DNA of 62,802 nt, counting the filler, from Bonamia ostreae (lineage: Eukaryota): assembly GCA_040357525.1 (NCBI GenBank). It is 40 parts of 40 records of this genome, joined end to end, with 100 filler letters (N's around TTAATTAATTAA, not from the genome) between each part and the next. Parts side by side here need not be neighbours in the genome. Positions count along the whole stretch, not along the records: positions 3,167 to 4,647 come from JBDODL010001728.1; 39 more parts are not named here. One strand, 5' to 3'. The notes beneath the pieces are model-generated. The model searched no databases. It was not told where the DNA came from and saw nothing but the letters and a program-made list of their open reading frames with translations. Each line of letters starts with the position of its first letter. The first letter of the stretch is position 1. The position numbers and the translations under genes were made by a program. This document shows, piece after piece, positions 3,067 through 62,802 of this stretch.

Positions 3067-3665
3067 NNNNNNNNNNNNNNNNNNNNNNNNNNNNNNNNNN
3101 NNNNNNNNNNTTAATTAATTAANNNNNNNNNNNNNNNNNNNNNNNNNNNNNNNNNNNNNNNNNNNNGCTCTGTTTCGAATTTTGATTTCTTTAGCCGTTC
3201 CAGACAATGTTTTGTGACTTTTATCTAGAATCATTTTTTGGTTTGTTCTATTTAATTTTTTTGTTTGTAAAAAAACTAAAATATTTGTTTTACTTGACAA
3301 TTTTTATACTTGTTTCGATTAAATAAAGGTTTGCAAATTTTATTAAATTTTATTAAATTTTCAGTCTACCATTTTTTATTTAATTGCAAGTTAAGTCGAT
3401 TAAGATTTAATCTCTTTTCCATTTCGTTTTTCGTCGAATTATCATTTTTTTCAATTAACATTTTTATCGGAAATGTCGTCTTGGCATTCTGCTTAAATGA
3501 TTTTTTTAATAAAAATGTAAATAAAAAACGAAAATGTTTTTTTCGGGCAAAATTAAATTTGCCGTTTTGATTTTTAAAATCAATTTTGACCAAAATGAAT
3601 ATTTTATAATAATTTTTTATTTTTTAAATTTTCAATTATTTTTAAATTGAAAAATTTCAAAATTT

Positions 3666-4547
3666 TCATTTTAGTTTATTTAGTCGATCTTCAAGGTTTC
3701 CGAACTCCTTTTTGCTGTCACTCGATTCATTTGCCGAACCATTTTTATTGTCACTTGTGCTTGATAAATTTTGTAAATCGCGTTTAAATTCTTTTTGGTT
3801 TTTATCATAACTATTTTCGGATAAATCTGCGCCATTTTGATCTATTAACTTTTCCATTTCTTTTTCAAATTCTTCTTCTTTTTCTAAAAATTGCCAAAAA
3901 TAACCAAATTTTGTCAAATCGATATCCAAATCATATTCCTCTGAGATCGATTTCAATCGAGAAATAACTCTTTTCCGCCGAGGAGGATTGACGCTTAGCC
4001 AATCTTTCACTCTTTTTTCAACATAAGCTTCGTTTGTAATCACGTTCGCCTCGAACTCTTCTCCGAATCGATTCGTCAATAATTTCATCGTCTGTTAAAT
4101 TGGAATTTAAAACTTTTTCCAGTTCGTCAGTTTCGATGCGATCGGAACAAAATTTGCACGTCGAGATTTTCTCTTTTATGTCGATAGGCAATTCGTCCAA
4201 AGAATCGATGAGACCAACTCTTTCTTTCAAAGTCTAGATGACAAGAAAAAACTTCGATGACGACAATTAAATGTTCGAGACACAAAACCAAATCTTCGCT
4301 TCTTATCAAACTTTCGCATTTTATCATCGCCAAATCGGTTTTTTTGTTTTGAAACAAATTTGCGATCTTTTTAAAGTTTTGTTGGAAACTTCTTTTTTTG
4401 TATCGGCGACAAAATTTGTTTTCTTTTCAATGTTGACTTGTACTCTTGAAATGGCCAGTTTCAGATAAGTTTCTCTAAAATGTCAAATTGTTACAGTGTT
4501 CTTCTGAACTTTTTGCTTTTTTGTGATGTCGTTTGAGCTGCGCCCAT
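3666..4547 (-). CDS. IST1: IST1-like ESCRT-III/Vps4 regulator, complete gene with 4-5 tiny introns
   Basis: Removing GT-AG introns 4475-4494, 4367-4389, 4234-4252 and 4092-4113 gives one ORF: LETYLKLAISRV..KKEIANLF..AMIKCESLIRSED..LKERVGLI..LSVNPP..RLKSISEEY. C-terminal MIM1-like FGNLEDRLNKLK. Confidence 0.85.
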
Positions 4548-4779
4548 TTTGAAATTAAGATGTTTCAATATAATAATTTTGATAAAGCTTATTTCTTTTT
4601 GTTGTTGGATTGAATATAAATAATGCGAAAGTTTTTTGTTTCTTTTTNNNNNNNNNNNNNNNNNNNNNNNNNNNNNNNNNNNNNNNNNNNNTTAATTAAT
4701 TAANNNNNNNNNNNNNNNNNNNNNNNNNNNNNNNNNNNNNNNNNNNNCTATAAAGAATACAAAATTAATAGTGAGCCAA

Positions 4780-20845: not shown

Positions 20846-21975
20846 ATGAATGAAATACATAAACACATACATCAGTATTTGTCCTCATCATCATACCAAT
20901 CACACTTTACAAAAGACGACCAAAGGAAAATCTGAGCACGGTCAAGGAGGTATGAACCAAAGAGCGAGAAGTTATACTGGAAAAATAATAACGGTGAATT
21001 ATGAGAAGTTGTTTTACAGAAGTGATCAAAACTGCTTTTAAAAGCATTTCACGATGATATAGGTCATCTCGGGAGAGAAAGGACATATCAGATGCTTTCT
21101 GATATATACTATTGGAAAAACCTATTTGATGATGTCTGTGCGTACGTTACTTCTTGTGAAAAGTGTCAAATGACTTCGAATTTCGACAAGAGTCCTGAGG
21201 AGCTACATTCAATACCTGTGGTATTCCCATGGTTTCATGTTGGAATGGACTTAATCAAAATGCCTTTGTCCAAATCTGTCAATAATTATATTCTTACCAT
21301 GGTGGACTATTTTTCGACGTGGCAGCTCCACTACCAAACAAATCATCAGAAACCGTAGCAAGTGCACTACTGAATTTGTTTTTGCGAATGGGTTTCCCGA
21401 CCGTTTTTAGCAGTAATCAGGGAGGGGAATTCGTCAATGCCACAATGGATGTATTGAAGAACAGAACTGGAGCAGTACATAAAATATCTTCATCTTACCA
21501 TCCCCAAACAAACGATCTCACCGAGAGATTTAATAGAACATTACAGGAAATGTTAATCAAAATTTGTTCTGACGACCAAACGGATTGGAATGAATTTCTC
21601 GATGAACTTTTCTTCTCATATCGAGTAGGGAAACAGAAGTCTACAAAAAATATCTCCCTTTGAGATATTTGCACGAAACCCAGTAAGAGAACTAGGAGGA
21701 AACAATAGATGAAGGTGAAATAGTAAAAACAGTTGAGGAAATGCAAAAACTTCGACGCACTATTGAAAACAAAGTAAAGGGTAACATAAAAGTTTCACAA
21801 GAAGACCAAGTGTTAAGACATAAACGCATTATGACTGATACAAGAATCAAAGTTGGAGACAAGGTTGTGAGATATAATACTAGAAAGGCTTCAAAAAAGG
21901 ATTTTAAAAAATGGAAACAAAATGGCTTGGTCCCTACATTGTGCAAAACATCAATCAGAAGGGTTGTAATGAAGT
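20846..21975 (+). mobile_element. Decayed Gypsy-type integrase, probably Ginger1/GIN-like DNA transposon, host
   Basis: HHCC zinc finger (FHDDIGHLG..CEKCQ), DDE core (GMDLI..VDYFS..QGGEF..YHPQTNDLTERFN) and GPY (WLGPYIV). GIN1-like N-terminus, no RT/RNaseH upstream, stops and frameshifts. Confidence 0.85.
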
Positions 21976-61348: not shown

Positions 61349-62802
61349 TTAATACATTAAATTTTTTAAAAGACAAAAAAAGTTAAAAAAATAATGTTTC
61401 AGATTCGTAAAAAAGCCAAAAAAAGTTATTTGCAATACCTGAACAATGGCCAAACCATCTTCAATCCTCACCAAGATAACAATACCAATATCAATCATCA
61501 GATTACGCCTCAAATTCTTCCCGCGTTTAAGCAATTTTTGCCAAACGCGCTCTTCGCCCTCTTCCTTTTCCCACTCGAGACTATTTATCCTTCGTGACAC
61601 TTCTTTCAAATGCGCTTCATCGAAAACACCGAAGTCTAAAGACATGTTGAACAAAGCTCCGATTTTTGTGCATTCGGGATGCTCCGGGCCATATTTGTTT
61701 GCGTACTTTAAAAAAGTGTTGTTGATTAGTCCCAAAGAATTGTTGCTGCTGTGGAATGCGAACCATTTCTGTCTTTCGTAAAGTTCGTTTATCGAAGAAG
61801 TTGTTCTCCTGTTTTTCGTTGATGTGCCATCGTCTTTTTATTAATTGTAACAATGAAAATTGTTATTGAAATTTTTCTTTTTTGAAAATTAGTTATTTGT
61901 ACAAAATTTAACATTTTAAAATAATTAATTAAAATCGACCATTTTTTTGACAATTTTTATTATTACTTGTAAAATCGATTTTTTATTATTATTTTGGACA
62001 TTTTTTTATTATTATTTTGACCATTATTTTATTATTATTTTGGCCATTTTTTTATTATTATTTTGACCATTTTTTTTTATTATTATTTTGACCATTTTTT
62101 ATTATTATTTTGGCCATTTTCTTATTATTATTATTTTGGCCATTTTTTGTTATTTGTAAATAAACAAAAATATTTTATTTTGAAAACGGAAACCTTGAAT
62201 AGAAATGTAAAAAGGTTCGACAATGTTGGCAGAGTTCACAAAGCGCTCGTCCCACAAAACGCTGTACATGTCTCCGTCCAAATCTCCGCTGCTCATTTCG
62301 TCACAGTGCGGTCGAGGACCGGTTGTCGGGAAAATAATGACGTCTCTATAAATTTTATATCTGTCGTCGGCTTCAACACAGCGAAGTTTCCTGATGTCGC
62401 CGAGATGGTAACAAGGATTGCGGAAAACTAGTACTTCGGCATTGAAGATCTTAGAATATCCTTCTTCCAATGTTGGGTTAAAAAAGCATTCTCCGTATTT
62501 TAATAAACCGAACGGATCACAAACGCCATATCTTTTTTAATTTTGTTATTTTGAAACATTTAATTTTTATTTTGGTCGAAAACAGATTGAAATTCTTTTA
62601 ATTTTGTTATTTTGAAACATTTAATTTTTATTTTGGTCGAAAACAAAGATTGAAATTCTTTTAATTTTGTTATTTTGAAATATTTAATTTTTATTTTTGA
62701 TCGAAAAATATTAAAATTTGATTCAATAAAAGTAATAAATTTCAATTAAATAAAGTACACTAATCTTCCTTTAGGAACAAAAATTCTCAGCCGTTCGGCC
62801 TC
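61349..62802 (-). CDS. Cellular (RNAi-type) RNA-dependent RNA polymerase, partial, protist
   Basis: RIFVPKGRLV|YGVCDPFGLLKYGECF..RNPCYHLGDIRKL..VIIFP..GPRPHCDEMSSGDLDGDMYSVLWD..LGLINN..SLDF. Introns 62532-62758 and 61834-62193. Confidence 0.93.

Follow-up and report, generated by a model that had tools for sequence, protein, structure and literature searches.

The IST1 gene of Bonamia ostreae, a haplosporidian parasite of oysters that is subject to regulation, is interrupted by five introns of about 20 nucleotides each, and the same genome carries two candidate U1 RNA genes whose 5' arms differ in a manner that matches two predicted classes of intron donor. It is close to certain that the five segments are spliceosomal introns of the major (U2) type, removed to leave an IST1 protein of 258 amino acids (as observed in RNA for introns 4 and 5, and as concluded from reading frame and domain order for introns 1-3). 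A fuller explanation, which combines real tiny introns with a duplicated U1 in which each arm would serve its own donor class, is the one that we favour, at somewhat better than even chances. IST1 itself, the family described by the Pfam profile PF03398, is a regulator of Vps4 in the ESCRT-III pathway.

The gene lies on a single contig (G000:C1727, window positions 3167-4647) of an assembly of 10.3 Mb in 7503 contigs. The window, meaning the whole stretch of DNA analysed (62,802 nucleotides, filler included), joins 40 contigs of 1462-1484 bases (about 1.47 kb), ordered by length, with an artificial linker (44 N, a 12-mer bearing stops in all frames, and another 44 N) every ~1570 bases from position 1485; because these are separate contigs joined by linkers, the genes within it are not neighbours. 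A preliminary description of the window had placed four GT...AG segments of 20, 23, 19 and 22 nt in the gene, and all four are found, on the minus strand, exactly where it put them; their removal, as it also claimed, restores an open frame (798 nt, from the ATG at 4547 to the TAA at 3666, encoding 265 amino acids with no internal stop). The fifth intron that it had considered probable is a segment of 21 nt at 3884-3904, which is left out of an RNA contig from run X2. The ends are GT...AG in all five segments, and the parts of the gene are as follows.

Exon 1, 4495..4547, minus strand: begins with the ATG at 4547; placed by frame, outside any Pfam match and outside RNA cover.
Exon 1, alternative end at 4510, minus strand: applies if the donor at 4509 is used.
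Intron 1, 4475..4494, minus strand: 20 nt, GTAA-type donor; removal clears a stop and restores the frame.
Exon 2, 4390..4474, minus strand: 28 full codons, equal to Ist1 profile positions 1-28 that remain before exon 3.
Intron 2, 4367..4389, minus strand: 23 nt, GTTT donor; placed by frame restoration, with exon 3 starting at Ist1 position 29.
Exon 3, 4253..4366, minus strand: Pfam Ist1 positions 29-64, E 0.0016.
Intron 3, 4234..4252, minus strand: 19 nt, GTTT donor; flanking exons abut in the Ist1 profile.
Exon 4, 4114..4233, minus strand: Pfam Ist1 positions 68-106, E 0.0087; part of it lies under the RNA contig.
Intron 4, 4092..4113, minus strand: 22 nt, GTTT donor; absent from the X2 RNA contig, and its flanking exons abut.
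Exon 5, 3905..4091, minus strand: Pfam Ist1 positions 110-163, E 4.4e-08; covered by the RNA contig.
Intron 5, 3884..3904, minus strand: 21 nt, in frame and free of stops; absent from the RNA contig and from the public protein P0121.
Exon 6, 3666..3883, minus strand: acidic low-complexity tail with the stop at 3666-3668; covered by the RNA contig and by P0121.

Intron 1 has an alternative form, in which an in-frame GTT-type donor at 4509 (15 nt upstream) would give an intron of 35 nt and a protein of 253 amino acids; a gene model blind to position +4 picks the 20-nt form, and a single-matrix model picks the 35-nt form. Two in-frame candidates for an additional intron within exon 3 were rejected, since that exon fills Ist1 positions 29-64 without excess.

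Two RNA runs were examined, and a contig of 480 nt from one of them (X2) spans window positions 3663-4185 while omitting 22 letters at 4092 and 21 at 3884; the other run, X1, gave no cover of the gene. The comparison with RNA that had been suggested as a check on the gene thus found both of the introns spanned (4 and 5) to be precisely removed. The same contig departs from the genome at three exon positions (window 3699 and 3780-3781), which are strain or allele differences. At the other end of the genomic contig, its first 63 bases (window 3167-3229) match an X1 contig with a depth of about 11,000, and are a high-copy or highly expressed sequence.

Exons 3, 4 and 5 were also scanned one by one against Pfam. 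Exon 5 alone scores 33.7 bits against the Ist1 core domain PF03398, for which the cut-off is 33.6, and exons 3 and 4 contribute 18.8 and 16.4 bits in profile order, such that positions 29-163 of the family are covered in order by the three exons. These exons lie in separate genomic frames, yet they abut exactly when unmatched end residues are counted, and introns 3 and 4 therefore replace no coding sequence; exons 1 and 2 gave no match in a Pfam search. That the frame breaks are instead errors of assembly, or that IST1 is a pseudogene, is a reading already largely refuted, and we rate it as very improbable: the assembly is indeed very fragmented and the RNA contig spans only introns 4 and 5, but each of the breaks coincides with a clean GT-AG block, two of those blocks are missing from the RNA contig, and the exons abut in the profile. 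Moreover, when the 882-nt gene was shuffled, with at most five GT-AG introns (18-24 nt each) allowed, none of 1000 shuffles gave an open frame of at least 870 nt (mean 82, maximum 606), against 879 for the real gene.

The protein is highly diverged. No IST1 homologues were found among 414 longer candidates, and a search with exon 5 returned a single match among 1.84 billion protein representatives (at 100% identity, the B. ostreae protein MES1921759.1 itself, here P0121) and none in the PDB; beyond the organism's own public model, then, exon 5 has no match in either collection. That public model comprises the last 133 residues, has intron 5 removed, and begins at an internal methionine, and so misses the first four exons, 120-125 N-terminal residues and most of the Ist1 domain. 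The expectation that gene predictors would overlook introns of this size is thus borne out in this case, and the gene models made public for this regulated oyster parasite are not always full-length.

Intron sizes across the genome were taken from a gene model of our own, trained on contigs of the assembly under an intron-length prior that was flat from 12 to 300 nt, and contig C1 together with 17 of 59 long contigs (GC of at least 36%) was dropped before sizes were counted; the resulting figures are calls of that model and are not read-based. Across 456,059 bases the model called 432 introns, including 82 of 19-23 nt (mode 20), two of 18 nt and four of 12-17 nt, and across 115,898 held-out bases it called 128, including 32 of 19-23 nt and four of 12-17 nt. 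When the flat-prior models are pooled, 114 of 560 introns measure 19-23 nt, three measure 16-17 nt, and 408 exceed 26 nt (a long class that includes false merges). A learned length prior, which is circular as regards length, placed 372 of 993 introns at 19-23 nt, three below 18 nt and 470 above 30 nt. The genome-wide plot of lengths that had been called for therefore has its mode at about 20 nt among gene-model introns. The accompanying proposal of a spliceosome 'adapted to ~20-nt introns' is not supported in that wording, given the pooled long class and the actin gene (L025, contig G000:C259), where removal of introns of 34, 214 and 60 nt yields a product of 376 amino acids that aligns without gaps over 244 residues to a 93% identical protein. 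Long introns are real, in actin at least, and a spliceosome that removes many of them is not confined to ~20 nt; 'tiny' is true of the size mode and not of the intron system as a whole. The introns would thus have been reduced to a modal length of 20 nt above a floor near 18 nt, while a long tail was kept, and such a floor fits the idea of a deletion bias acting against a size threshold, as put forward in the part of PMC10245619 consulted.

When exon pieces (140, beside 74 short introns) were compared with Pfam as a check on the model, eight junctions had both flanks in one family, and of these five abut and three leave 2-5 profile positions. Within the window the model calls eight introns in five genes, or 15 in ten genes under permissive settings, and the independent support there is for the IST1 introns only; the count given in the preliminary description, at least 12 such introns across six genes, is plausible. 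Raw counts of GT-to-AG distance, made without a gene model, were set aside after giving a faint bump (846 at 20 nt versus about 750) and no signal in the window; the presence of a stop in 23 of 26 short model introns of 3n length was also left unused, as it reflects detection bias. Two further observations concern single genes: the first actin intron begins with GTAACAAT, as does intron 1 of IST1, and a predicted gene on L063 (G000:C50) with more than 20 introns, many of 19-25 nt, has a weak NCD3G match.

The donors of the predicted introns are unusual. Among 356 model introns of 18-100 nt, T occupies position +3 in 338, position +4 in 293 and position +5 in 204; the sequence GTRAG begins none of them, and G at +5 (36 of 356) is not enriched. 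A neutral set of 256 introns was assembled with no score beyond the GT (frame-shifting, unambiguous introns of 18-26 nt), and there the donors are GTT in 220, GTA in 19 and other in 17; since nothing beyond GT was scored, the dominance of GTT is not an artefact of training. Within that set, GTTT makes up 172 of the 220 GTT donors (48% in non-coding DNA) and GTAA makes up 17 of the 19 GTA donors (43% in non-coding DNA, p 6e-5), although GTAA donors are rarer than random GT sites would yield (17 versus 26.9). A larger set drawn up blind to position +4 has A at that position in 38 of 49 donors after GTA and in 42 of 393 after GTT. These sets left out loci with GC of at least 42%, L001-L003 and duplicates. 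The model donors thus fall into two classes, a large one of GUU(U) and a small one of GUAA, and the two occur together: 33 of 35 contig-strand pieces with a short GTA intron also hold GTT introns. G at position -1 precedes 18 of 38 GTAA donors and 91 of 393 GTT donors in the larger set (p 0.003), a difference that falls short of significance in the neutral set (8 of 17 versus 56 of 220, p 0.08), and G at +5, which a standard U1 arm would favour, is found in two of 38 GTAA donors. Loss of METTL16 is a possible cause of U at +4; it was discarded here, a METTL16-family gene being present in the genome.

At the other end of the intron, the acceptors of 144 short model introns are AAG (78), TAG (46), CAG (19) and GAG (1), and any pyrimidine tract before them is no more than base composition would give. 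YTRAC with its A at -9 to -7 is found in 12 of these 144 (about 1.9 expected) and A stands at -8 in 62% of short model introns; looser branch motifs are not enriched, and intron interiors are unconserved. The 3' end would probably be set by the AG together with a branch A some 7-9 nt before it, and with scant pyrimidine tract.

Two candidate U1 genes were found in the genome.

L074:766-924 (contig G000:C1288), minus strand: U1; Rfam match at 766-921, 47.4 bits, E 3.5e-10.
L135:1559-1675 (contig G000:C414, positions 3710-3826 of that contig), plus strand, reaching the contig end: second copy of U1, with the promoter element; 23.5 bits, E 0.013.

Both scores fall below the Rfam cut-off of 69.5 for RF00003, the C414 copy being cut. 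The C1288 copy has helix H, the four-way junction, the U1-70K loop, the U1A loop, the Sm site and the terminal stem-loop, and, left to fold by itself, it adopts the U1 cloverleaf and keeps the Sm site single-stranded (five of 200 shuffles are as stable). Its arm reads CAAAAC in place of ACUUAC and is the complement of GUUUUG, such that the three changed positions exactly complement the enriched T at +3, +4 and +5. The C414 copy retains an intact standard ACUUAC arm and a standard U1A loop; it ends with its contig before the Sm site, and so holds the first two stem-loops only, and no continuation was found among the contigs. Its U1-70K loop is altered, an extra hairpin is present in stem-loop 1, and its fold is no better than that of shuffled sequence (153 of 200). 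A loop-based U1 pattern matched the C1288 copy only, because the loop of the other differs. Both contigs hold predicted genes with tiny introns of the GTT type, which argues against contamination; a search of metagenomes for U1 sequences whose arm reads AAAAC recovered 84 stretches, none of which holds a haplosporidian-like U1; one of them (L185) is a U1-like fragment truncated where its contig stops.

A 13-nt element lies upstream of both copies. An exact search for it gave eight matches in the genome and none in the control, and it precedes U4, U5, U3 and the U1 genes of C1288 and C414; a looser search adds RNase P RNA. Rfam alignments place the starts of U4 and U3 at 59-60 bases from the element, and the two U1 arms start at that offset or one base after it; this agreement suggests that the changed arm is probably a true 5' end. 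The genes for U4, U5, U3 and RNase P RNA are on L126, L128, L133 and L149 (U4 at C308:184-319), and the common element lies ~59 bases ahead of their starts, except that U5 carries it twice and begins at a greater distance. Further matches (e.g. L141 and L145) may be unannotated non-coding RNAs.

Over the 356 donors, the changed arm makes a mean of 4.49 pairs of a possible six and the standard arm 2.62. Taken by class at +1 to +6, the changed arm makes 4.40 pairs with GTT donors and 2.45 with GTA donors, and the standard arm 2.59 and 4.31, figures that are partly true by construction because the classes are defined by position +3. Within IST1, the 20-nt form of intron 1 makes four pairs with the standard arm and two with the changed one, introns 2-4 make four or five with the changed arm and two or three with the standard, and intron 5 makes four with each.

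Other components of the spliceosome were sought as well. U4 (94.4 bits) and U5 (68.2 bits) are above their Rfam cut-offs, and the proteins U1-70K (69 bits) and U1C (63.4) are present. A U2-like sequence on the minus strand of L075:368-514 (G000:C951) matches weakly (21 bits). Its branch-pairing GUAGUA is intact, its first stem-loop is enlarged, 2 nt are inserted, and the promoter element is missing; it may be a divergent or dead copy. For U6, Rfam matches in the genome were at chance level, and motif searches gave nothing or gave matches without U6 support. One U6 candidate (L111:386-506, G000:C1422, plus strand) has AGC, an ISL-like hairpin and a T-run, but was rejected for want of an ACAGAG box, of an Rfam U6 match, of a complementary U4 and of pairing with the real U4.

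From these observations a mechanism may be proposed, in which U1 was most likely duplicated and the arm of one copy changed to CAAAAC, so that this RNA would now bring the spliceosome to GUU(U) donors; the other copy, whose arm is the standard ACUUAC, would serve the remaining GUAA donors, and both RNAs would be made. IST1 would then be a 'mixed' gene, with introns 2-4 read by the changed U1, the 20-nt form of intron 1 by the standard one, and intron 5 by either. The specific proposal that two U1 snRNPs operate within one major spliceosome, dividing a GUU(U) majority from a GUAA minority (~1/10 of short introns) in the same genes, we hold to stand at even chances.

The competing readings accept the introns and dispute the division of labour. 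It is conceivable, at perhaps half that weight, that only the C1288 U1 works and that the C414 copy is a decaying remnant, with GUAA donors read weakly by the C1288 U1 or by proteins. The altered U1-70K loop, the inserted hairpin, the incompleteness of the copy and its indifferent fold are all in keeping with decay, as is the lack of G at +5 in GTAA donors; a remnant is harder to reconcile with the correct spacing of its promoter element, with its intact arm and with its standard U1A loop, and the GTA donors, which pair poorly with the changed arm, are specifically GTAA. The opposite reading, in which the standard U1 does everything, aided by proteins or by U6 as in yeasts and Giardia, and the CAAAAC copy is without function and matches T-rich donors by chance, appears distinctly unlikely. 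It gains from the unchanged U1 of other lineages with atypical donors (bioRxiv 10.1101/2022.06.08.495308, in the part consulted), from the abundance of A-runs in this genome and from the position of the CAAAAC copy below the Rfam cut-off, but it leaves to coincidence the exact complement between three changed positions and three enriched ones, the preservation of stems, loops and Sm site in that copy, and the absence of GTRAG among the model donors. A pair of U1 genes, each with its own donor class, remains the account that we prefer, and the arrangement makes duplication followed by divergence directly testable in existing RNA data. By what path thousands of donors could change jointly with the U1 RNA by which they are read is an open question, and the arrangement in Bonamia, if true, would be a route to rewriting the 5' splice-site code, caught in the act, that avoids a lethal mismatch.

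Several sequences of separate interest were noted. A piece of a cellular RNA-dependent RNA polymerase gene (PF05183) with introns, on the minus strand at window positions 61426-62559, suggests an RNA-silencing pathway, and pieces of a retrotransposon integrase (Integrase_H2C2 and rve) lie in two frames on the plus strand at 21026-21663. In the wider genome, a match to a squalene-hopene/oxidosqualene cyclase domain (L059:7827-8006), in a gene with tiny introns, suggests sterol or triterpenoid synthesis, and a very AT-rich sequence resembling small- and large-subunit rRNA (L002, G000:C7503:1-2932) is probably mitochondrial. Nuclear 18S was not found in the genome contigs, the single small-subunit match looking mitochondrial.

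In the part of PMC11069148 consulted, B. ostreae is said to have canonical introns with a mean of two per mRNA; that text gives no intron sizes or splice signals, and the word 'intron' is absent from its supplementary text files. Neither 'intron' nor 'splic' occurs in the consulted text of PMC9329632, and a literature search for Bonamia or haplosporidian introns, snRNAs, or a changed or duplicated U1 (most subscription journals lying outside it) found no such description. Tiny introns alone are already known from mikrocytids, nucleomorphs and ciliates; the new part is a pair of candidate U1 genes matched to donor classes.

One comparison is with the mikrocytids Mikrocytos mackini and Paramikrocytos canceri, in which 224 introns are all 16-17 nt long and highly conserved in sequence, and in which the snRNAs identified are U2, U4 and U6 only (PMC10245619, in the part consulted). 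Both groups are parasites within the Ascetosporea, and both have spliceosomal introns so short that they approach the lower limit of size. In contrast to the mikrocytids, Bonamia has introns with a modal length of 20 nt, a floor at about 18 nt, a long tail and loose interiors, and it has candidate U1 genes together with U1-70K and U1C. This mixture of tiny and long introns, handled by a fuller spliceosome, offers a less reduced relative in which to study intron shrinkage in the Ascetosporea. The same source cites introns of 18-21 nt in chlorarachniophyte nucleomorphs and 15-16 nt in heterotrich ciliates; the IST1 introns (19-23 nt) thus lie above the minimum of both mikrocytids and heterotrichs, and the range in Bonamia overlaps that of the nucleomorphs. 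In the ciliate Stentor the U1 arm is standard, and the branch consensus is weak and lies near the 3' end (PMC9505925, in the part consulted), a placement that the probable branch A of Bonamia would resemble. Whereas nucleomorph and heterotrich introns fall in a narrow range, single genes of Bonamia hold tiny and long introns together, and their predicted donors are changed.

For the U1 arm, comparisons may be drawn from the consulted part of a preprint by Roy and Bowser (bioRxiv 10.1101/2022.06.08.495308). Most lineages with odd donors have kept a standard U1, as is reported there for Thecamonas, the Mamiellales, 69 yeasts and Giardia, and in the tunicate Fritillaria the route of a divergent second U1 was not taken (PMC13326754, in the part consulted). 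Entamoeba, on the other hand, has near-fixed GUUUGU donors, a co-evolved U1 arm of ACAAAC and a single U1 per species, and the U1 arm of Mastigamoeba is changed too. Bonamia resembles Entamoeba in donors that start with GUUU and in a U1 arm altered to complement them, a convergence between different supergroups; it differs in the looser GUU(U)(U) of its donors, in the three altered positions of its arm, +5 among them, and in having a second candidate U1 with a standard arm alongside a minority class of GUAA donors. A further parallel is Physarum polycephalum, where standard and modified U1 variants are reported side by side. There the change is of one base (GUAUGU), that part of the preprint gives no pairing of variant to donor class, and its authors defer the case to a separate presentation; with Bonamia, given its two candidate genes, it has in common the possession of a standard and a changed U1 in one genome.
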